Virus record (IMG/VR): IMGVR_UViG_3300033142_001620
Source of the DNA: an uncultured virus (IMG/VR IMGVR_UViG_3300033142_001620)
Taxonomy: Duplodnaviria; Heunggongvirae; Uroviricota; Caudoviricetes
Length of the DNA stretch: 64,000 nucleotides
Strand: one strand, 5' to 3'
In this document: in pieces, positions 7,088 to 50,900 of the stretch
How positions within the stretch are numbered: the stretch's first letter is position 1
Layout: the number at the start of each line of letters is the position of its first letter
Notes under the pieces: generated by a model
What the model was told of the DNA's origin: nothing
The model's input: only the letters and a program-made list of their open reading frames with translations
Databases searched by the model: none
Program-made: the position numbers and the translations under genes

Positions 7088-7354
7088 ATGTCAGATATAT
7101 ACAAACTAATGGAAATAAAAGAGGAGATAAAAACCTTAGCAAATGAAGCAATGGATATAGTTAAGGAAATAGGTTATCCTCTCGCACTAAGTAGAGCAAA
7201 CACATTCTGGTATCCTAAAATCCTCAAATCACTTGACAATGAACATTGTTATTTGGGCAATGGATACACCATACAGGACACAATCAATGCAATAAAGGAC
7301 GAAGGCTGGGAAAGCAAGCGACAAGCCCATAAAGGAAAAAACAAACAAGATTAA
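7088..7354 (+). CDS. Hypothetical protein
   Basis: AAGGAGGT SD. Confidence 0.75.
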   Translation: MSDIYKLMEIKEEIKTLANEAMDIVKEIGYPLALSRANTFWYPKILKSLDNEHCYLGNGYTIQDTINAIKDEGWESKRQAHKGKNKQD

Positions 7355-7371
7355 ACAAAATTAAATAAAGC

Positions 7372-7399
7372 TTGACAAAACAATATTCATTGATATATT
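7372..7399 (+). promoter_or_regulatory. Sigma70-type promoter
   Basis: TTGACA at 7372, A-rich UP-like element upstream, TGA-TATATT extended -10. Confidence 0.55.
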
Positions 7400-8484: not shown

Positions 8485-8686
8485 TTTGCCATATTATAAA
8501 ACATTCAGCAGTATCTATATGGAAGAGACATTAAAAGGGCAACTTAAAAAGCTGGCTGAGATAGAAAATCGGTCTCTCAACAGCTATATAAATATTGTCC
8601 TTAAAAAACATGTCGATAAGAAACTACCAACAAAATCAATACTTGTGAAGAAAGATAAATTGGTACTGAAAAGGAGGTCGGCATAA
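8471..8686 (+). CDS. Arc/ribbon-helix-helix DNA-binding protein (start may be a few codons downstream)
   Basis: SIYMEETLKGQLKKLAEIENRSLNSYINIVLKKHV; ends KLVLKRR. Confidence 0.75.
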   Translation: MEVNNLPYYKTFSSIYMEETLKGQLKKLAEIENRSLNSYINIVLKKHVDKKLPTKSILVKKDKLVLKRRSA

Positions 8687-9132
8687 TGCATAGCTGCTGC
8701 TACTGCAAAACTTGGAAAGAAACCGGTTCCAAGTTTAGAAAAAAAGAATTTAGAGGAAAGAAAACAATCTATTCCCGATTCTGTAAAATAGTAATGCGTG
8801 ATGTGCAGGGAATCACAGACCCTTGTGAACACTTCCGACCAGCCCAATGGTTTTGGTGTGATACAGATCAATGTTGGATGCATGTGCTTGCCTGTTTAAA
8901 TCGGGACTATGACTGCTATCAAAAAGAAGATGTACTGGATGCAGTTCGTGGCTTTGACTTAACAAAGGAATTTAACATGAAGCCAAGACTTGTGATAAAA
9001 CAACCAGAACCACCAGAACAGCCAAAACTAAAGCTGCGGGAGAAAAAAGAAAAAATCATTCTGATTCCAAAGAAGCCAAAACTTGTGCTGAAGAGGAAAA
9101 CAAACTTGGTACTTCTCAGGAGAAAAAAGTGA
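8686..9132 (+). CDS. Cys-rich hypothetical protein with basic KLVLK-repeat tail
   Basis: AAGGAGGT SD; CCYCKTW..C..C; TAATG coupling. Confidence 0.7.
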   Translation: MHSCCYCKTWKETGSKFRKKEFRGKKTIYSRFCKIVMRDVQGITDPCEHFRPAQWFWCDTDQCWMHVLACLNRDYDCYQKEDVLDAVRGFDLTKEFNMKPRLVIKQPEPPEQPKLKLREKKEKIILIPKKPKLVLKRKTNLVLLRRKK

Positions 9133-10947: not shown

Positions 10948-11229
10948 ATGAATATACTCAACAAAATAATACACAAAAACAGGAACAAGGGCTTCTGTGG
11001 GGTGCAGGCATTCATCGACTGTCCTAATTGTGATGGTGGATTAATACATCACTACTGGTCACACTTCGCAGGAGTCGAATGGGCAGAATGTACAACGGAC
11101 GGCTGCTTCCGTTATGAAAAAAATATACTGAAGCCAAAGCTTGTGCTAAAGAAAAAGACAAAACTTGTCTTGAAGAAAAAGCCAAAACTTGTACTCAAGA
11201 AGAAACCAAATCAACGAACTTTGTTCTAA
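10948..11229 (+). CDS. Zn-ribbon protein with (KLVLKKK)x3 tail and C-terminal QxxLF
   Basis: CPNC..CTTDGC; 21-nt tandem repeat x3. Confidence 0.7.
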   Translation: MNILNKIIHKNRNKGFCGVQAFIDCPNCDGGLIHHYWSHFAGVEWAECTTDGCFRYEKNILKPKLVLKKKTKLVLKKKPKLVLKKKPNQRTLF

Positions 11230-11238
11230 GGAGGCAAA

Positions 11239-11430
11239 ATGCATAAAATAGAAACGATAGCAAAAGAATATCTCCACTTAAAAAAAACACAAAGTGGCAT
11301 TGCCGAAAGTCTGAGAGAAAAAAGAATTGAACTATCAACGGAATGTAGAAAAATAGTTGCATCGGGAAACTTTCTATTGCCAACTACCTTACTTGCAAAA
11401 ATAACACTGGCAGAAATCAATGGCAAATGA
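11239..11430 (+). CDS. Hypothetical protein
   Basis: AAGGAGG SD. Confidence 0.6.
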   Translation: MHKIETIAKEYLHLKKTQSGIAESLREKRIELSTECRKIVASGNFLLPTTLLAKITLAEINGK

Positions 11431-12373
11431 TAAGCTCGTAAAGGAAATAGTTAATCGCCTTGAGCACTTTGACATAGAAAAATATCTGGACTCAAGGAAC
11501 ATCGAATATTGGACAGAGGGCAAGAACATCAAACAGGGCTGGATTGGTATTCAATGTCTTTGGTGCGAAGACAAATCAAACCATCTTGGAATCAATCTTG
11601 ACAGCAAAAGTATAAATTGTTGGATATGTCCTACCAAGGGAACTGTCATTAAAATAATAATGAAAGTTGAAAGGTGTTCTCTCAAAAGCGTTTTAAGCAT
11701 AGTAAATGAATTTAGCAATATCCGACACTACATTGACAAGGAAAGCAGCAAGGATGAGCAAATGCCGCAGCGTGAAACGACTGTCACGCTTCCTTTGATG
11801 TCCAAAAAAGAGCTATTTCCTTTACACAGAAAATATTTGGAGAATAGAAGACTTGACCCGGAGTTTATATTCAAGAAGTATAATTTATCCTGCACCGGTC
11901 CCATAGGAAAATATAGACACCGCTTAGTTATTCCTTTCCACTACAAAAAAAGGCTGGTAACTTTTTCTTCAAGAGATGTTACTGGAAGAGCAAAGATTGC
12001 ATATGTTCACCAGCCGGAAAAGAAAAGCGTTCTGTCCACAAAAGAAACCATTTACAATGTAGATAACTGCAAAGAATCAATTCTCGTAGTTGAGGGAGCT
12101 ACAGACACATGGGCAATTGGTGACAACTGTGGCGCCACTATGGGGATAAAATGGACTGCAATTCAATTATCCATTTTATCCCAATTTAAAAGAGTATTTA
12201 TCCTGTATGATGCTGAAGAGGAGGCACAACAGAGTGCGGAGCGATTGTGTTATGATTTATCTTCAGAGGTAGATCATGTAGAACAATTGCAATTAGACGA
12301 AGGAGACCCCGGCTCAATGAGCAGGGAAGATGTTAAACATTTACGGAGAGAGATATTTGGTAAAATCTATTAA
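11420..12373 (+). CDS. DNA primase (Zn finger + TOPRIM)
   Basis: CLWC..H..CWIC zinc finger; RLVIPF; VVEGATD; LYDAEE; GDPG. Confidence 0.9.
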   Translation: MANDKLVKEIVNRLEHFDIEKYLDSRNIEYWTEGKNIKQGWIGIQCLWCEDKSNHLGINLDSKSINCWICPTKGTVIKIIMKVERCSLKSVLSIVNEFSNIRHYIDKESSKDEQMPQRETTVTLPLMSKKELFPLHRKYLENRRLDPEFIFKKYNLSCTGPIGKYRHRLVIPFHYKKRLVTFSSRDVTGRAKIAYVHQPEKKSVLSTKETIYNVDNCKESILVVEGATDTWAIGDNCGATMGIKWTAIQLSILSQFKRVFILYDAEEEAQQSAERLCYDLSSEVDHVEQLQLDEGDPGSMSREDVKHLRREIFGKIY

Positions 12374-12377
12374 ATCT

Positions 12378-12447
12378 TGCAAGACACGTCAAGACCTACC
12401 TCGACAAGACAGAGCATGATGCGATAGAACAAAACGAGACGAGACTA
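12378..12447 (+). repeat. 5-nt periodic GAY-NN tract A (14 units), candidate guide RNA
   Basis: tgcaa gacac gtcaa gacct acctc gacaa gacag agcat gatgc gatag aacaa aacga gacga gacta. Confidence 0.8.
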
Positions 12448-12480
12448 ACCAACACAATCTAACAAAGGAGATTAGAAATT

Positions 12481-13038
12481 ATGAAAACAGCTACCACAAA
12501 TTTAAAAAGCAGTTCATCTTACAGTCAATCAAAGTATTATGACACACCAAAAGAAGAAAAAGAATCGAACGCTGATTATGAAAAAAGGACATGGAGGGAC
12601 AGACTCCATACAACAAAAGATAACAACGTGTTTATCCCCCCAATGGCATTCAAAAATTGCATTGCTGAAGCCGCAAAGTATCTCGCAATAAAAATTCCTG
12701 GTAAGGGAAAGCAGAACTATACAAAGCATTTTGAAGCAGGAATACTTGTAACTGAACCACTTATTCTTCCAGACAAAAAAGACAAAGTTGAAGGGGAATG
12801 GTTCTTTGTACCATCAGATGGAAGGCGTGGTGGAAACACAAGAGTTCACAAATGCTTTCCAGTTATCCACAAATGGGAGGGGAAAGTAGATTTCATCATT
12901 TTTGATGATACAGTTACTAAAGAAATATTTGAGTATGTGCTGGAAGAAGCTGGCAAGTTTATTGGTTTAGGAAGATTTCGTCCAAGAAACAATGGCTTTT
13001 ACGGAAGATTTTCTGTTGAAAATATAAAATGGTCTTAG
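12481..13038 (+). CDS. Stand-alone Cas7/RAMP-like protein (Vipr-like)
   Basis: AAGGAG SD; VFIPPMAFKNCIAEAA resembles the RAMP IP.S.hKG.hR helix; C-terminal Gly-rich loop AGKFIGLGRFRPRNNGFYGRF; flanked by periodic repeats. Confidence 0.75.
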   Translation: MKTATTNLKSSSSYSQSKYYDTPKEEKESNADYEKRTWRDRLHTTKDNNVFIPPMAFKNCIAEAAKYLAIKIPGKGKQNYTKHFEAGILVTEPLILPDKKDKVEGEWFFVPSDGRRGGNTRVHKCFPVIHKWEGKVDFIIFDDTVTKEIFEYVLEEAGKFIGLGRFRPRNNGFYGRFSVENIKWS

Positions 13039-13045
13039 CTTAAAA

Positions 13046-13289
13046 AACGAGGTAGGATTTAACTAGACGCAGCACGTCCCGATGGGACCCGACAGGACAC
13101 GACTTGATTTGACTCGACCTGACCTGACAAGGAAACAACCAATTTACGAGACTTGGCAAGACGAGATTAGACGTGACAAGACAAAACCTGACTATACAAG
13201 ACAAGGTTTTTAAACAGTTTGCCCGACATGACCTGACCAGATGAGACTACACTCGACAGGATGGGACTGGACTATACAAGACAAGATAA
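13046..13289 (+). repeat. 5-nt periodic GAY-NN tracts B (13046-13130, 17 units), C (13145-13204, 12 units) and D (13220-13284, 13 units); candidate guide-RNA array
   Basis: e.g. gatgg gaccc gacag gacac gactt gattt gactc gacct gacct gacaa gg; each tract ends GACAAG; short AT-rich linkers between tracts. Confidence 0.9.
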
Positions 13290-13311
13290 TTCAACTAAAA
13301 GGAGAAGAAAA

Positions 13312-13800
13312 ATGTCAAATTTTATTTTATCAATTGAAACAAAACAATTACTTGAAAGACTAATGAAAGTAAAAGTTGGGGAACTTATTTCCTATCAAGA
13401 AATGACAGATATTGTTGGCAGAGATATAAGAAAAGATGGTAGTGGTATTATGTACTCTGCAAGAAGAAAAGCTCTGAATGATTGCCAGATTGTTTTTATA
13501 ACAATAACAAATGAAGGAATAAAAAGAGCTTCGGATGAAGAAATTGCTAACAGTGGTGCTTCCGTCATACATAAAATCAGGAAAGCTTCTAAGAAAGGAA
13601 AAAAAGTGCTTCATGCTGTCAATGATTTTGGTGCTCTTACAAATAATAGCAAAATAAGGCACAATGCCTCTGCTTCTTTCTTAGGAGCAATTGATTTGAT
13701 GACTCGACCAAAAAAGATAGTTGCTTTAGAAGAAAAAGTAAAAGAAGAATCTGAATGTATTAACGTCACAAAAACTCTGGAATTATTCAAGGCAAATTAA
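13312..13800 (+). CDS. Accessory protein of the RAMP/periodic-repeat locus (possible N-terminal wHTH-like domain)
   Basis: True start MSNFIL after AAGGAG SD (the track start 13261 lies inside repeat D); VGELISYQEMTDIVGRDIR; sits between tracts D and E. Confidence 0.75.
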   Translation: MSNFILSIETKQLLERLMKVKVGELISYQEMTDIVGRDIRKDGSGIMYSARRKALNDCQIVFITITNEGIKRASDEEIANSGASVIHKIRKASKKGKKVLHAVNDFGALTNNSKIRHNASASFLGAIDLMTRPKKIVALEEKVKEESECINVTKTLELFKAN

Positions 13801-13806
13801 ACAGTT

Positions 13807-13893
13807 TACAAGACAAAGCACGGCTTGGCACGACCAGACAAGACCGAGTCCGGCTTGGCTCGACCAGACAAGACGAGACTTAACGAGACAAGG
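13807..13893 (+). repeat. 5-nt periodic GRY-NN tract E (17 units), candidate guide RNA
   Basis: tacaa gacaa agcac ggctt ggcac gacca gacaa gaccg agtcc ggctt ggctc gacca gacaa gacga gactt aacga gacaa gg. Confidence 0.85.
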
Positions 13894-14044
13894 TAAAAAT
13901 TTTCCGCTTGACAAATCAAATGAAACAATATAAATACAAGATTTTTAAAAAAGGGCTTGACACATGAGGAGAGACATGTTAAACAGAAAACAAATAATCT
14001 TGACAGGTGGCAAAAATAATTCTCTCCATGCCTTCCTGCCTCCC

Positions 14045-14082
14045 AGAACCCCCAATGAGTTTGCCCGCTCGTTGGGGGTTCT
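14045..14082 (+). other. Strong GC-rich hairpin in a 5' leader
   Basis: agaacccccaatgag / ctcgttgggggttct inverted repeat, downstream of three CTTGACA boxes (~13907, 13956, 13999). Confidence 0.6.
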
Positions 14083-14102
14083 CTCGTTTAGGAGTATATA
14101 AA

Positions 14103-14261
14103 ATGAACTCAAAACAAATAGAAGCCTATAGCGTATTCATAAATCATGGAAAGAAAAAAAGAATTGCCGTTACTGATCTAATAGAAGTAATTGGCATGTC
14201 TATCTTTGTTGGTTGGTTACTCGGAATACTCACAGTAATAACACTGTTTGAGAAAGCATAA
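14103..14261 (+). CDS. Small membrane protein
   Basis: AGGAG SD; start MNSKQ; C-terminal TM helix. Confidence 0.6.
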   Translation: MNSKQIEAYSVFINHGKKKRIAVTDLIEVIGMSIFVGWLLGILTVITLFEKA

Positions 14262-14327
14262 GGAGGTGATTCTATGTTTGTGAGGCGTCAAAACGTCCGT
14301 TAAAATTAATATAGACCATATTGGGTT

Positions 14328-14367
14328 AACAGTATCTTGTCCTTTATTGGGCAGGATACTGTTTTTT
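14328..14367 (+). terminator. Rho-independent terminator
   Basis: aacagtatcttgtcc-tttatt-gggcaggatactgtt followed by a T run. Confidence 0.75.
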
Positions 14368-14460
14368 CAATTGGTTATACAATGTTGGTCTCATTTTTGA
14401 GACTGAAAATGGTCAAACCATAGAAATAACAACCAAAACAATCTATTTGGAGAGGTAGAA

Positions 14461-15090
14461 ATGAAGAAAAAATCTTGGAAAGACAAAACATATGATAAAA
14501 GTGTAAACAAAGGAAAGATATGGGTAGATCAAGCTGTTCCACTAATAGATAAGTTTTTAGGAATAAAATGCAGCCCATATGCTTCGTGGGCAAGTGTAAA
14601 AAAATATGGAACTTGCAGAGAAAGAATAGAAATAAAACTGGACAAACCATGTGATATTAGAGATGATGGGCGTGGGGTTATGTCTATTGAGGTGAAGAAA
14701 AGAACAAACCCAATGGAAGATGATGAAAAGAGTCTAAAATGGATTCCCGCAGGAATAACAAGAGTTAATAGAACAATTCTATATGCTCAAGGAAGACCCG
14801 CAGAGAAAGGAAGACCCGGAATACTTGCTATTTTTGAGAAAAAAATACTTTTGGAGTTATGGGAAGACTGTGTTTACAAAGAAATGCTTTTTCCCCATCC
14901 AAATGCAGGAGAAGGACTGCCCAGAATCAGAACATATCATATTCCATTACCAGATGTTCCAGAACTTGCCATATATTTTAAGAGATGGAGAAAAGAAAAA
15001 AAATCCAGAATTTTGACAAGAAAGAATGCCATACTTATTCCAAAGAAACAAAAACTAATCAGAAAAGAAACTCAGGGCTATATATTATAA
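14461..15090 (+). CDS. Hypothetical protein, possible PD-(D/E)xK nuclease fold
   Basis: PCDI..SIEVK motif; basic tail. Confidence 0.5.
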   Translation: MKKKSWKDKTYDKSVNKGKIWVDQAVPLIDKFLGIKCSPYASWASVKKYGTCRERIEIKLDKPCDIRDDGRGVMSIEVKKRTNPMEDDEKSLKWIPAGITRVNRTILYAQGRPAEKGRPGILAIFEKKILLELWEDCVYKEMLFPHPNAGEGLPRIRTYHIPLPDVPELAIYFKRWRKEKKSRILTRKNAILIPKKQKLIRKETQGYIL

Positions 15091-15091
15091 A

Positions 15092-16390
15092 ATGGTCGAC
15101 AACGAAACAATAATACTTCCTTTCGATATTTGGGATGCTCTCACATATATTGGACTGCCAAAAAGCGAAATGTCCTGCTTAATGCTCATCATAAAAAAGA
15201 CAGTTGGATGGGATAAAAAGCGGGATGAAATTGCCATTTCTCAGTTCATAAAAGCAACAAGACTTCCCAAATCCTCAATATTTAGGGCATTGAACTCACT
15301 CAAGAAAAAGAGGATTATTTTCAGTCTCAAAAATGAGACTCGAATCAATATAACTTATGGATTTAACAGCCGGATACAGGACTGGAAATCAGTCTCAAAA
15401 ATGAGACTCGACATCAAAAATGAGACTGACCATCAATCAACTAATGAAAATAACAAGAAAAACAAGATAAAGCTCGTTTTGAAGAAACCCCGGGATGGAG
15501 TCTCAAAAATGAGACTACACAGTAATACTAGTATAACATCCAGTAATAAAGATACTGGCGTATCTTTATTGAGTACTCCTATCGGAGCACAAAAGAGAAT
15601 GAGTGACTCACTCAGGAATAACAAAACTGATTTGATTCCAAAAAAGAAAAGTCTCACATTGACTAAAAAGAATAAACGAATATTTGATTATTACTACCAA
15701 GAATATTATAAGAAACAGCCATCATTGAATACTCAAGCTGCAAAGAAAGCCAAACATTGCTTAAACAAACTTGCAAGGGGAATTTTGTTTAACAGAGATA
15801 CTTCCCTAAAAAAATATCACAATAGAAAATTCTCAGAAAAGGAAATCAGATTTGCTATTGACAGACATATTACAAAAGCGGTAGATGATTCATATAAACC
15901 AGCAAACAAAGGATTCATGTTTGTTTATCTTGCCGATTTCTTCTATAATAAATTTTCAAGGATTAAAAGCTTATTCCTTGACTCACTCGAAAACGAACCA
16001 GTCCCAGTAGTTCCTGTTCTTGTTGATCGCAATCCCGAATTGTCCAAAGCTCTATTTGATGTATACAACGAAGAAGCTCGAAATGGTTTATCCATGACAC
16101 CATTTGACAAGCTGACACATAAAGATAAGAATTGTTTTACTGCCGGAGCATTCAAACTGAATAAGTTTCTCAAGATGAACGATAATAGGATTATCAAGCC
16201 AATGTTGAACACACACCAAAAGAAAGCAATGTTGTTATGGAAAACCATAATGATGTGTGCAAATAACGATTTAAAGAAAGTTCATGCATTCTGGTTTAAA
16301 GCTGATTTTGTATTCGAGAGATTGCCAAATTATATGACTGATAGAGGATTTTTGACATCGAACGCAAAGCGGAGTGCGTTTGTAGTGTGA
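15092..16390 (+). CDS. Replication initiator with lambda-O-like N-terminal domain
   Basis: LIIKKTVGWDKKRDEIAISQFIKATRL..IFRALNSL; contains internal iterons. Confidence 0.75.
   Translation: MVDNETIILPFDIWDALTYIGLPKSEMSCLMLIIKKTVGWDKKRDEIAISQFIKATRLPKSSIFRALNSLKKKRIIFSLKNETRINITYGFNSRIQDWKSVSKMRLDIKNETDHQSTNENNKKNKIKLVLKKPRDGVSKMRLHSNTSITSSNKDTGVSLLSTPIGAQKRMSDSLRNNKTDLIPKKKSLTLTKKNKRIFDYYYQEYYKKQPSLNTQAAKKAKHCLNKLARGILFNRDTSLKKYHNRKFSEKEIRFAIDRHITKAVDDSYKPANKGFMFVYLADFFYNKFSRIKSLFLDSLENEPVPVVPVLVDRNPELSKALFDVYNEEARNGLSMTPFDKLTHKDKNCFTAGAFKLNKFLKMNDNRIIKPMLNTHQKKAMLLWKTIMMCANNDLKKVHAFWFKADFVFERLPNYMTDRGFLTSNAKRSAFVV
15323..15516. repeat. Palindromic iterons AGTCTCAAAAATGAGACT (putative replication origin)
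   Basis: Copies at 15323, 15391 and 15499; partial copy at 15411; inverted copy at 14387. Confidence 0.8.
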
Positions 16391-44993: not shown

Positions 44994-47900
44994 TAGACCA
45001 CCTCCTTAAATACAGTTTGTATTTCTTTGTGTTTATATCTTACTTTGGTATCCTCATGTTTGAAGATACATAATGGGTCAGATGGTATATACGTTGAACT
45101 GGTTGTTGAACTCGAACTCGAAGTGGTTGTTGAACTTGTGGTTGTCCCTCCTGTCTGAGTCGTCATTGTACTGGATGTGGTACTCGCCGTGGTGCTGGTA
45201 GTTGAAACTGTCGAGCTTGTTTGGCTCGTAGATGTCGTAGAATGACTGCTGGTCGTGCTTGAATAACTCGATGTAGTGCTGCCAGTTGAGCTTGAACTTG
45301 TGGTAGTTGAATGTGTGCTGCTCGTTGTACTCATTGAGCTTGAAGTCGTACTCTCCGTTGAACTGGTAGTCGAAGCGGTAGTCGAACTTGTGCTATGAGT
45401 AGAACTGGTGGTACTTATCGTTGAATAAGTACTCGAAGTGGTACTTATTGTAGTGTGCGTTGAAGAGGTAGTTGAAAATGAACTCGAAGTTGTGGTACTA
45501 TGTGTGCTACTTGTGGTAGACAAAGTACTCGCAGTAGAACTGGTAGTTGAATGTGTACTTGAAGTGGTACTGGCTGTACTGGATGTTGTGCTGTGAGTTG
45601 AACTCGTGGTTGAGTGTGTAGTTGAGGCTGTGGAACTGGTAGTGCTTTCAGTACTGGACGTAGTTGAATAAGTTGAAGATGTGGTACTTATTGTGGATGC
45701 TGTACTTGAGGTTGTGCTGTGTGTCGAAGATGTGGTACTTATTGTAGAACTTGAGCTACTGGTGGTGGAAGATGTGGTACTTATTGTAGAACTTGAACTC
45801 GTAGTAGTCGAATGTGTCGTTTCTCCGGGCGAAGTCGAGCTTGTGGTACTATATGTAGATGTTGTAGACTCGGTGGAACTGGTACTCGCAGTCGAGCTTG
45901 TGGTGCTTATGGTGCTGTGTGTTGAAGATGTGGTACTCGCTGTAGAACTGGAAGAAGTGGTAGTTGAACTGGTAGTTGAATGGGTAGTGTGTGTTGAACT
46001 GGTAGTAGAAGCTGTTGAGCTTGTACTTGAAGTTGTGGTGTGAGTAGAACTGGTAGTGCTGTATGTTGAACTGGTAGTCGTATGTGTGCTTGAGGTGGTA
46101 CTGTAAGTAGATGATGTCGTGCTTATGGTACTATAAGTGGACGAAGTGGTGCTTGCAGTTGAACTGGTTGTACTGTGTGTGCTTGAGGTGGTGGATATGG
46201 TACTGTATGTTGAACTGGTTGTTGAAGCTGTACTGGATGTGGTACTGGAAGAACTGGTTGTGGTGCTTATTGTAGAATATGTAGAACTCGTGGTACTTAT
46301 GGTGCTGTGTGTACTGGATGTGGTACTTGCAGTTGAACTGGTAGTAGAATGTGTGGTATGTGTAGAACTTGTGGTACTTGCAGTTGAACTGGTAGTAGTA
46401 GAGCTTGAAGTTGTGGTACTGATCGTACTATAAGTAGACGAAGTGGTACTGATAGTCGAAGCGGTACTCGAAGTCGTGCTATGTGTTGAACTGGTAGTAG
46501 AAGCAGTGCTTGAAGTGGTACTTGAACTTGAAGTGGTTGTAGAACTTGTGGTACTGATCGTAGAATATGTTGAACTGGTAGTACTCGCAGTTGAGCTTGT
46601 GGTAGAGTGTGTAGATGAGGTTGTGCTGGCAGTCGAAGATGTGGTACTAATTGTACTGTAAGTAGACGAAGTGGTACTTATTGTTGAAGCTGTACTGCTT
46701 GTGGTACTCGCTGTAGAACTGGTAGTAGAGCTTGAAGAGGTAGTAGAGCTTGTGGTTGCGGCTGTTATCTCATAAGTATATCCTGATGAGTCATTTCTGT
46801 CAAAATCCACATCCTCAGAATACCAATCGTAAGTTGAGCCATCTGGGCTGTCAGTAATGGTGGCACCAGAAGAAGCGGGAGTAAGAACTTGTTTTACACT
46901 GTCCTCATCTGTATAACCAATGTCCCCAGCTGTACCATGAACTCCGGCGGCAAAATAGCATTTATAGTCGGCCATACAGGTAGCATACCCAGAAAGATAT
47001 GTCCAAAAAGTATTAGCTGTAGCAAGAGTCCAAAGTCTATCATAAGGTGCACCACCCATGATAATTTCTTTAACTGTGTAGTCGCCAGTGTTGTGCTTAG
47101 TATAGCCAGTTACTTTATAAAGACCACCATACTCTATAAGAGCATTAATTTGTTGAGAACCTTCACCATGATTAAAAGTTGGGTCAATTTCTATCTCTAA
47201 ACAATTTCCACTTTGGCCACCAGATACAGAAGCTAATGTGGCTTGGTATGCGTTAACTCCACCAGTATTTTCATAAGTTGTATTGAGAAGTAGCTCTGAA
47301 CCATAAGTCTCCCCAGTGCCCATTGCTTTTAAGAAACCAACAAGTTCTTTATTTGCAGAATCTCTTATAATTACTTTCTGACCAAGATAACTGTTAAATA
47401 ATCCCGGCAACGAAAAGTCAACAAAAGCAGTTCCATCAACAATAGATAATCGCATATTGTCTTTAGTAATGCTGCCTGCTGGTGGATATGTCGTACTCGT
47501 AGTCGAACTTGAACTTGAACTTGTGGTAGATAGCGTAGAAGCTGTTGAACTGGTAGATGAACTTGAACTTGTGGTACTGATTGTACTATAAGTAGAAGAT
47601 GTCGTGCTTATGGTAGAATAAGTACTTGAAGTAGTGCTATGAGTAGACGAGGTGGTACTTATCGTAGAATATGTAGAACTGGTAGTTGAATATGTAGATG
47701 AGGTTGTGCTGTGTGTTGAAGATGTGGTACTTATTGTCGAAGCAGTTGAACTGGTAGTCGTATGTGTTGAGCTTGTGGTACTTATGGTGCTATATGTACT
47801 TGAAGTGGTAGATATGGTAGAATAAGTGGATGAGGTGGTACTTATTGTACTGTATGTTGAACTGGTAGTGGAAGCTGTTGAACTCGTGGTACTTGCTGTG

Positions 47901-50900
47901 GAACTGGTAGTTGAAGCTGTACTGGATGTTGAGCTTGAGCTACTGGTAGTAGAACTTGTGGTACTCACAGTAGATGAAGTGGTACTCGCTGTTGAACTGG
48001 TTGTACTGTGTGTACTCGAAGTGGTACTTGCAGTCGAACTGGTTGTCGAAGCTGTAGATGAAGTGGTACTGTGTGTACTGCTTGTAGTGGATATAGTCGA
48101 ATGAGTAGAACTTGTGGTACTTGCAGTAGAACTGGAAGAAGTGGTACTCGATGAAGTGGTAGTACTGGATGTGGTAGTTCCCGCATCTTCATAAACAGCA
48201 AAAAAACTAGAATCAGTATCCGAAGCTGAACTTGCCCCATGCCATTCTGCCCCTATAGGCCAAATATAAGGAATCCCACCTGTCCCAAACACTGCATCTA
48301 TCCCTGTAGCTGCAAAAGCAGAAACAAATATATTATCATCACCAGTGAAAAGTGAAATCCAATAATCCACTCCCCCTGTTACCTGTGGTTTAGTTCCAGT
48401 ATAGGTATGTGATTCTTTTATTGGAGCACTATGATTTGTTGTAACAAGAGTGGCAGTTTCAGAATTAGCTACCATAGTTTCTGGGCACTCGTTGATAGCA
48501 TCATCAGTAAAAATAGCTATTCTAAACTCGGCTCCGGCGTCTGTGTCATATAGCCACATACCTAATTCTAAAATTTCTTTTGTACCAGTGCCCGGGCAAG
48601 TGAATTTTTGTGCTGCTACCATTCCCCCAACTGTTGGTGCCTCACCATCCCCATATCTTACAGTAGGAGAAGTTGTTACAAATCCATTGCCCTCAGGGGG
48701 TATTGTTGTACTTGTGGTTGAAGCTGTGCTACTCGTTGAGCTTGTGGTAGATAGTGTAGAAGCTGTGGAACTGGTAGTACTCGCAGTTGAACTAGTTGTA
48801 GTAGTTGATGTGGGAGCAGGGTCTAATGACAATCCACCTACCCAATCGTCCTCTCTACATGTCAACATATCAATATAGAATGTCCCATATGTGAGTGTTG
48901 TTGTTGTTCCAAACAGCACCAATCCACTATCCGTGGCATGTGTATCTGTCAAGGTCCCTTCAGAAGTAATTGGATATACAGAATCAATATTGTTTGGTTG
49001 GTCTACTCCATTAATCCGCCATGCCCAAACATTATTAGTAACACTCCATTTAAGCTCAAAACGATAACGAGTATTTAATGACACAGCAACATTTGAAATA
49101 AAATCTTCTCTTTGTCCATCATGGAATGCTGCTATTGAAAATCGCAAGACACCAGTGGCACTTTTTTCTAAAAACACCCCGCCACATGGTAGTGAGAGGG
49201 TGCTATTATACACTCCACAAAGACCAAACCATTCCTCGTTACTAAGACTCTCTGATGTGATTACAACTTCCCATCTCCAAAATGTATCTGCTGTGACGCC
49301 AAGAGAGGTGTTATAAAGAAAAACATCACCCCCATCAATATCTATCTCACAGCATTGACTCTCCCATCCAGAAGGCGAGCCTGCAAGAGTAACATTTGCA
49401 TCTTCATTATATGTGCCACCAGATTCATCATCTTGCCAATTAGATTCTTCAAATCCTGTTCCCTCAAATCTTTCGTCAAATATATATGGGGGTGCGGTTA
49501 CAGTTGTGCTTGTGGTAGAAGCTGTGGAACTGGTGGAAGCTGTAGAAGCTGTAGAACTGGTAGTACTGGAAGAACTGGTTGTAGTAGAACTGGTTGTGGT
49601 TACTTCAGACTCCGCACCAATCCAATCTGAATCGGAAACAGTTAAAAGGTCAATATAACAGGTAGTGTTTTGACCATAATCCGTGTAATCGCCCAAAACA
49701 ACTGCCCCACAATTAACGTCCCATGTGGTAGTGCCTTCAGATGTTATTGGACTTTCAGAGTCAACATTATTTGGCTGGTCAACACCATCTATTCGCCATG
49801 CCCAATGGTTATTTGTGTTGTCCCATTTTATCTCTATTCTATACTTTGTGTTAAGTGATATAGTATTAATACTTTGGTAATATTCACTACCGAGATCGTC
49901 TGGGTCAACAGCGATAGCCCACTGTAAATCACCATCACCATTTTGATAAAGAGCAAATTCAAAAGGATTATTACTTAACACATTATCCCAAAGTGCAAAC
50001 ATTACGGCAGCATCCGTATTTCCCAAACTTTCAGAAGTAACAACAATTTCAAATCTATAATAAATTATGTCATGGTCGCCTATAACATTATAAACAGAAT
50101 TGGCTTCAGAAACAGTTATAATCTCCATGCACTGACTGCCCCAATTAGCAGGAGAGCCAGCATCCGAAGGGTCACCATCTGGATTTAGGGTACTACTTGC
50201 ACCTTCACCTTCAACCCAGCCCGATTCTTCATAGCCAGCACCTTCAAATCTTTCGTCAAATATATATGGGGGTGGTGTATAAACAATAGTAAGCTCCGCA
50301 CCAGTTCCACCACCAGACTGAGCTTCAAATCCTGTCTGGTTATTCCATCCTGGTGAATCAGGAAGCCAAACAATTGCTAAAGAATTCCCTGAGCTATGAC
50401 TCCCAGTAAACCTTTCTTGAATTATAGTCTTAATTTCTGGTGAATCACTATCACCATCACCAACACTTTCAAATACAACTTCACCAGGATGAACTGATGC
50501 ACCTGATGGGACAGTTCCATTTTGCCACGCTGAGGGAGTATTATCATTAACAGCTTGTAAATGTCCATCATCCATGTGACCTGAACTTTCTCCCTCAAAA
50601 GCTCCATCAATAGAAATTTTACAGCCATTTTCAGCTATTCCTTCAGCCTCTACATTTGTCCAAATCCAGCCAGAACTAAGAGCAGGATCACTTGCTATGT
50701 TGCCCACATAAAGATTGCCGTCACCACCATCGTCATAATAAGTACCATTGTCGTCCATACAGTCGTCACTTGTTTCATTTGGCCCCCAATTGGTAGGGCT
50801 TATCACTACATCCCCGTTGTCAGGCAAATCAAAATCACCAAGAAAGAAATCAAGCTTTTTACCGCCTGCTTGACTCTCCACTGTATAACCATTATGAATG

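Follow-up and report, generated by a model that had tools for sequence, protein, structure and literature searches.

A two-gene cassette and its pentamer tracts

The window, a 64,000-nt stretch from an uncultured virus of the Caudoviricetes (IMG/VR record IMGVR_UViG_3300033142_001620), carries on its + strand, at 12378-13893, a VIPR-like locus composed of a gene for the RAMP protein Vipr, a winged-helix-like accessory gene and five putative vrRNA genes built from GRY+NN pentamers. Nearby genes encode a helicase, a DnaG-like primase, a RepO-like initiator and a DnaB-like helicase, which places the cassette in the replication module of the phage, between the primase gene and the RepO-like gene (15092-16390). 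From the primase stop (12373) to 13893, every intergenic space is occupied by + strand tracts of 5-nt units.

Five such tracts, all on the + strand, were delimited. Tract A (12378-12467) sits between the primase stop codon (12371-12373) and the ribosome-binding site of vipr; it consists of 18 degenerate vrRNA-like units that start with TGCAA and end in ACCAA CACAA TCTAA CAAAG, and in its own register 6 of the 18 carry a GAC core. Tract B (13061-13132) has 14 units up to 13130 (AACTA ... GACCT GACCT GACAA) followed by an orphan GG, and tract C (13145-13206) has 12 units up to 13204 (TACGA ... GACTA TACAA GACAA), likewise with an orphan GG. Tract D (13220-13286), whose 13 units run to 13284 (TGCCC ... 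GACTA TACAA GACAA) before an orphan GA, ends 25 nt 5' of the accessory gene start, and tract E (13807-13893) follows that gene with 17 units up to 13891 (TACAA ... GACTT AACGA GACAA) and an orphan GG. The units have the form GAC+NN, with GGC, GAT, TAC and AAC as variants, and can be summarized as G-R-Y followed by two free positions. GAC triplets chained at 5-nt spacing are confined, within the window, to the tracts and to the + strand. Period-5 scores were 0.77, 0.93, 0.87, 0.90 and 0.83 for tracts A to E, respectively, relative to a maximum of 0.77 in five shuffled windows; the one comparable signal elsewhere in the window comes from an A-rich stretch (7320-7393, 0.83) that lacks such units. 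Tract E also harbors an internal 30-nt (six-unit) duplication (13808-13874, 86% match), and its two guide halves are near-copies.

A sequence-only reading of this region had proposed that shared motifs at the tract boundaries are fixed 5' and 3' handles of individual guides, and as sequence the motifs are where it placed them and go well beyond chance. GACAAGG ends tracts B (13126), C (13200) and E (13887) and GACAAGA ends tract D (13280); across the whole window the + strand has 11 copies of GACAAGG versus ~3.4 expected from base composition. The terminal 16-mer GACTATACAAGACAAG common to tracts C and D was found at 13190-13205 and 13270-13285 (+ strand) and nowhere else in the 64 kb (expected ~0), and the 10-mer TAAACAGTTT said to precede tracts D and E occurs at 13211 and 13798 only (expected 0.19), its E-side copy (13798-13807) beginning at the stop codon of the accessory gene and ending on the T of the first E unit. 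Similarly, CAATTT precedes tract C (13140) and AAATCTT precedes tract A (12372), each ending on the first-unit T, and the first units of four tracts are TRC as described: TGC in A (12378), TAC in C (13145), TGC in D (13220) and TAC in E (13807). The linker lengths of 14 and 15 nt hold when counting starts after GACAAG and runs through the T of TRC, and become 12 and 13 nt between GACAAGG and TRC. By the latter count, the B/C linker AAACAACCAATT (13133-13144, + strand) comprises 12 nt, ends in TT and is unstructured (fold z -0.63). The 13-nt C/D linker TTTTTAAACAGTT (13207-13219, + strand) has a U-run after the orphan GG, then AAACAGTT, which is specific to this locus, and is unstructured as well (z +1.37). 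Linkers and tracts of the window fold no better than their shuffles (z -1.3 to +1.4), and an Rfam search of 11000-16000 gave no match at E <= 1.

The first gene of the cassette, vipr (12481-13038, + strand), encodes a 185-aa RAMP protein with an RRM core and a C-terminal glycine-rich loop, GLGRFRPRNNGFYGRF. In family searches phrog_4652, of unknown function, was its sole match, with no Pfam family recovered. A profile of 47 gene-1 homologues, in contrast, matched PDB entry 36pp_D, annotated as 'SUSP1 Vipr protein', with an E value of 1.9e-9, and this was the only solved protein matched. The match is confined to the C-terminal half (profile positions 82-182 versus 88-190), with the N-terminal half of the family unaligned to SUSP1 Vipr by sequence. 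An invariant glycine-rich loop (G-h-G-x-x-R ... G-x-x-G-R-F) closes the 47-homologue alignment, and the G-loops of the family and of SUSP1 Vipr align (GxGxxRPR..GRF). By tblastn, window Vipr shares ~35% identity over 74 residues with SUSP1-like phages. The AlphaFold (AF2) model of gene 1 (pLDDT 94.4) found its best Foldseek matches in type VII Cas7 and type III Csm3, with E values of 5e-8 to 1e-4. Together with the profile match, this Cas7-like model marks the gene product as a minimal RAMP protein homologous to the described Vipr proteins.

The second gene, a vap-like accessory gene (13312-13800, + strand), encodes a predicted 162-aa protein with a winged-helix-like N-terminal domain and a helical C-terminal half. 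Its AF2 model is confident (pLDDT 92.5), and the winged-helix likeness of the N-terminal domain is middling (VIA Z 6-8, Foldseek E >= 0.017). No Pfam or PHROG family was recovered for gene 2, and tblastn of its product against phage records gave no match; blastn of 11400-14300 against phage records was likewise without a match.

A search with gene 1 returned 71 related loci, all from viral contigs, one of which (L001) represents the same phage as the window. Period-5 tracts adjoin the gene-1 homologue, on the gene strand, in 69 of the 71 loci, and a gene-2 homologue does so in 60; the remaining neighbors vary from locus to locus and share none of this conservation. Loci also differ in their fixed trinucleotide, which may be GGC, GAC, CGC, CAC or GTC. 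Even close Vipr relatives can have different ones (loci L001-L071, alignment A1): the CGC-type loci L038 and L044, for example, share a well-supported clade with the GGC-type loci L011 and L012, and 20 core changes are needed on a quick, poorly resolved Vipr tree. Residue-to-core covariation in Vipr revealed no determinant of the core, the top columns tracking phylogeny only. At L006, L051, L052 and L056, tracts are absent or weak under these five cores, with hints of AnTCn and CnnCT as fixed bases.

Relationship to VIPR and other RNA-guided systems

VIPR, an RNA-guided DNA-silencing system, was first described in 2026 (bioRxiv 10.64898/2026.04.26.720920 and 10.64898/2026.04.26.720927). In the available text of these two preprints, VIPR loci are phage-borne, with vipr and an accessory vap gene flanked by vrRNAs. 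Each vrRNA carries a constant 3' tail behind its 9-16 YNNGG repeats, and infected cells contain the vrRNAs as separate ~100-nt RNAs that co-purify with Vipr. Their NN bases recognise DNA with one base skipped, and competing phages and satellites are silenced. By cryo-EM, one protomer occupies each repeat, with G1 and G2 held by one protomer and Y3 by an adjacent one, and target engagement spreads from the 3' end. The same passages describe the ~40-nt pseudoknot tail for the SUSP1 clade only, and predict DNA binding for the vap accessory protein in VIPR types II, VI and VII. A further preprint, likewise available in part, used entropy periodicity to find GAC/NN, CAC/NN and other non-canonical VIPR-like arrays beside Vipr-like folds (bioRxiv 10.64898/2026.10.21.760802).

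Taken together, the Vipr profile match, the Cas7-like fold, the period-5 tracts and the published features of VIPR identify the window locus, by homology, as a VIPR system of a divergent clade. The cassette resides in a phage replication module, in keeping with the virus or provirus carriage expected of VIPR, and vipr is flanked on the gene strand by pentamers of a fixed pyrimidine-ending trinucleotide plus NN, with GRY rather than GGY as the core. An unannotated metagenomic phage locus is thereby placed in a newly described class, which is extended to a clade of at least 64 loci with five core trinucleotides. Since VIPR and its GAC/NN variants already appear in the 2026 preprints, as far as their available text goes, neither the system nor the repeat class is new.

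The locus resembles VIPR type II of Escherichia phage SUSP1 and a Pseudomonas fulva prophage in several respects: a phage-borne cassette of vipr and an accessory gene; guide genes upstream of, between or after these two genes; 5-nt guide units combining a pyrimidine-ending trinucleotide with two variable bases; and 12-18 units per guide, a constant 3' part, albeit of another form, and a Vipr G-loop that aligns to that of SUSP1. Unlike SUSP1, the window has a GRY core (mostly GAC) instead of GGY, and an accessory protein without a sequence match in phage records. Furthermore, the ~40-nt pseudoknot tail of SUSP1 contrasts with the unstructured 12-13-nt linkers of the window, which are too short to accommodate it and where AA-fixed units make up the constant 3' part; the orphan G(G/A) and the U-rich sequence behind these units also count towards this part, which has no stable fold. 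The non-canonical arrays of the later preprint (bioRxiv 10.64898/2026.10.21.760802) are similar in that GAC/NN and CAC/NN repeats lie beside a Vipr-like fold; its available passages give motifs and neighboring folds, and in those passages there is nothing on ends, tails or linkers.

The locus also parallels the backbone of class 1 CRISPR systems, in which Cas7 or Csm3 coats the crRNA. Both involve a RAMP fold with G-loop and thumb (Foldseek E 5e-8), one subunit per fixed guide step and constant handles at the guide ends; the VIPR step, however, is 5 nt with 3 buried bases, versus a 6-nt step with 1 flipped base in CRISPR. Unlike CRISPR-Cas, the locus has no repeat-spacer array, cas genes or CRISPR repeat, its cassette amounts to only two genes, and long direct repeats of the kind expected of a CRISPR array are absent from it. 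The sequence-only reading of the tracts as guides with conserved ends but no repeat-spacer alternation is borne out to the extent that homology allows, since the guide assignment follows from the relationship to VIPR, where vrRNAs are separate small RNAs.

Tract edges across the clade

Edge statistics were compiled for 202 non-identical tracts from 64 loci (the window and related loci), spanning five cores and using each locus's own core. Tracts were called in the window and 70 other loci wherever there were 6 or more exact cores with no more than 2 misses in a row; L001, exact duplicates and any tract without 30-nt flanks were excluded, and four loci gave no callable tract. Because the caller stops at the last exact core, the flanking unit is biased by construction away from a full core, and 394 interior degenerate units (of 2630), which carry the same bias, served as the control.

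Towards the 3' edge, AA fills the two free positions in 105/202 last units, 121/202 second-last units and 74/202 third-last units, versus 128/1418 interior units. Beyond the last exact core comes a partial unit in which base 1 survives in 134 of the 202 tracts and base 2 in 122, but the C in only 54. TTT occurs within 15 nt downstream of 102/202 tract ends compared with 12% of random places. The general 3' form, a core followed by AA and the first core base, was found at 149/199 tract ends versus 26/117 mid-tract controls. Its GAC version, GACAAG, is found at the end of 39 of the 52 GAC-type tracts that come from 15 other loci; in the window itself, GG stands at three of the four ends of tracts B-E, where the GAC core would predict GA.

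The 5' edge displays a different pattern of retention. In the unit before the first exact core, bases 1 and 2 are kept at chance level (48/202 and 47/202, respectively), and base 3 is a pyrimidine in 194/202 tracts and a C in 166/202; one unit further upstream, C at base 3 falls to 53/202. T is raised upstream of the tracts, reaching 101/202 at position -6 and 86/202 at -7. Among the 394 interior degenerate units, base 1 is kept in 258 and base 2 in 170, and base 3 is C in 288 and T in 92, so that a pyrimidine is found in 380/394 clade-wide. As these interior units share the caller bias and still differ, both edge units are unlike ordinary decay. The 5' edge features are present in 61/64 loci and the 3' edge features in 58/64.

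Overall, tracts of this Vipr clade have the same edges whatever the core (GAC, GGC, CGC, CAC or GTC). The 5' edge is a T-rich stretch followed by a unit in which nothing but the pyrimidine is retained (in the window, TRC). At the 3' edge, one to three AA-fixed units are followed by the first base or first two bases of a core that lacks its C, and these in turn by a short U-rich run free of structure. The TRC start and the GACAAG(G/A) end noted earlier are the local form of this clade-wide rule. Of the two proposed handles, the 3' one is thus conserved in homologous loci through its GACAAG form, and the 5' one is not: the literal motif ACAGTTT is local to the window, CAGTTT standing upstream of 0/52 GAC-type tracts elsewhere and downstream of 4. 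Nor do the edges form a separate handle sequence, being mostly repeat-like units, and the literal edge motifs vary between loci. Clade-wide, tracts have a median length of 12 units (quartiles 10 and 15, range 6-38), a spread in line with a remark in the available VIPR preprint text that vrRNA length sets filament length (bioRxiv 10.64898/2026.04.26.720920 and 10.64898/2026.04.26.720927), and linkers within arrays are most often 14 nt long, with a median of 22 nt. The most divergent GAC-type subclade (L063-L070, e.g., L063:3547-3568; 37% identity) has tracts that end in GACAA GACTT and are joined by a conserved 22-27-nt linker, TGGTGGCnTGCGGAATA, with a GCATGC-like palindrome, a tail unlike that of the window.

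One could instead regard the shared edges of the window as leftovers of a recent duplication of one vrRNA cassette combined with repeat decay at the margins, having no part in processing or assembly. The identical 16-mer of tracts C and D, the doubly present TAAACAGTTT and the internal duplication of tract E all fit such a history, as do array linkers that are near-identical within a locus and different between loci and the absence of CAGTTT upstream of the 52 GAC-type tracts elsewhere. Nevertheless, AA-enriched terminal units, orphan pyrimidines and orphan first bases are seen in 58-61 of the 64 loci, across five core types and down to 37% protein identity, and interior degenerate units do not resemble the edge units. 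We therefore consider duplication and decay an improbable explanation of the edges.

These end rules are a modest addition to what is known of VIPR, and the tract-end architecture may already appear in the preprints' material on other VIPR types and on 'staggered' arrays. Their use is twofold, as a testable account of guide length and filament ends without a structured tail, and as a practical criterion for calling vrRNA boundaries from sequence.

A possible end code for tail-less guides

We consider it likely that the tracts are the vrRNA genes of a phage VIPR system and that their conserved boundaries mark where the protein-coated part of each guide truly begins and ends. On the basis of homology, a single Vipr protomer would bind each 5-nt unit, burying the fixed trinucleotide and presenting the two variable bases, which would read double-stranded DNA with every third base skipped, and binding would silence transcription of competing mobile elements. 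Each protomer may read bases 1-2 of one motif together with the pyrimidine of the motif upstream. If the pyrimidine is indeed held by the protomer on its 3' side, a pyrimidine would suffice for the first protomer and the first two bases of a core for the last, which is what the edge counts display. This polarity of the Y3 contact is inferred from those counts, the available preprint text being silent on which neighbor is involved. Such half-sites would fix the first and last protomers and hence the length of the filament. The coated part would accordingly extend from the orphan pyrimidine to the orphan G(G/A), giving 12 protomers and 12 dinucleotides for tract C.

For SUSP1, the accessible VIPR literature treats the tail as the feature that makes the vrRNA competent for complex formation. 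In the window's clade, the AA-fixed units and the U-rich stretch are taken as its counterpart since they are the only constant 3' element present, and they would replace the 40-nt pseudoknot tail in assembly or capping. TTNTT lies within 14 nt of 37/202 tract ends versus 5.7 at random, and follows 30/105 AA-bearing ends compared with 7/97 ends without AA. A fold-back of the U-run onto the AA units is suggested by these counts, and suggested only. The AA units are possibly capped in this way, the U-run serving as a built-in TTnTT 'target', or they may require a T-rich DNA start. We put forward, tentatively and as the less probable outcome, a tail-less guide that encodes its ends within its own repeats: the first protomer would be seated by an orphan pyrimidine and the last by an orphan core pair, and two or three AA units would act as a constant assembly or seed element. 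If true, this would constitute a minimal, protein-length-setting end code distinct from both the SUSP1 pseudoknot and CRISPR handles.

The five guides could be cut from one long primase-vipr-vap transcript by a host endonuclease acting in the naked U-rich linkers. Among the sequencing runs listed for the locus there was no RNA run, and three DNA runs shared small fractions of its sequence words. A scan of 11300-13960 (+ strand) for sites of the sigma-70 type found none, and the first strong terminator-like hairpin downstream of the cassette, with 15 pairs plus a T-run, lies at 14328-14363 (+ strand); a single transcript cut in the linkers is therefore the simplest route. The positions of tracts A and D, the former ending at the vipr ribosome-binding site and the latter just before the accessory gene, would also suit a role in expression control, in which U-rich stretches and tract ends mainly regulate vipr and vap, a Vipr filament on A and D throttles translation or transcription, and the edges are not cleavage sites. 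Among relatives, a T-run separates the end of a tract from the ribosome-binding site of the following gene, and the restriction of the strong terminator-like hairpin to 14328-14363 is compatible with that view. Against it, SUSP1 yields separate ~100-nt small RNAs that co-purify with Vipr, as the available preprint text reports, and the same edges occur inside arrays and after the accessory gene, with no gene closely following. Control of expression as the main purpose of the edges thus appears slightly less probable even than duplication and decay, although such control would be compatible with the tracts also serving as guides.

The tracts might also act as DNA, either as primase sites, with GTC on the other strand, or as protein-binding repeats of the replication module. 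The locus does lie between the primase and RepO-like genes, GAC is complementary to GTC, and GTC is the T7 primase site. Nonetheless, the core changes to GGC, CGC, CAC or GTC among relatives and yet stays on the gene strand, conservation of the cassette does not extend to the genes on either side, and the partner protein is a RAMP with a homologue whose structure was solved with RNA, leaving a DNA-level function very improbable. Least credible of all is a TRAP-like ring that wraps 5-nt repeats to regulate neighboring genes without guide function: Bacillus TRAP binds, as an oligomer, a triplet repeated every 5 nt (as in the trp leader RNA), which the tracts resemble, but TRAP has an unrelated fold and forms a fixed-size ring with no variable-base code, a TRAP-like protein is absent here, gene 1 is a Cas7-like RAMP homologous to Vipr, and tracts of 6-38 units are unfit for a closed ring. 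Both the ring and the primase-site ideas were dropped on the Vipr profile match and Cas7-like fold.

For the preferred assignment of the tracts as VIPR guides, we searched for targets. Window guides compared with the window and the 71 loci at skip 0, 1 or 2 gave no match above shuffled guides, and the 202 guides of all loci, compared with the same sequences, had no excess at skip 1 over skip 0 or 2. Exact patterns of guides B and D, with no mismatch tolerated, had 0 matches in viral contigs and 0 in metagenomes; in genomes they had 4 matches, which agree at 2-3 of 10 non-seed bases, the chance level. Because these exact-pattern scans tolerate no mismatch, their outcome says little about targets.

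Other repeats were observed in the window. The origin iterons of lambda-type phages are located in the RepO-like gene, and the RepO-like gene here (15092-16390) contains a 19-nt direct repeat in two and a bit copies, with core TCAAAAATGAGACT, at 15395-15436. Lysine-rich stretches of the KPKLVLKKK type occur in or at the end of unrelated ORFs of the replication module (8686-9132, 10948-11229, 14461-15090 and 15092-16390), and the one in the ORF at 10948-11229 is encoded by a 24-nt tandem repeat (11131-11210). Finally, dense imperfect tandem repeats with periods of 9-72 nt (TRF) fill 45093-49579, presumably a repetitive coding region.
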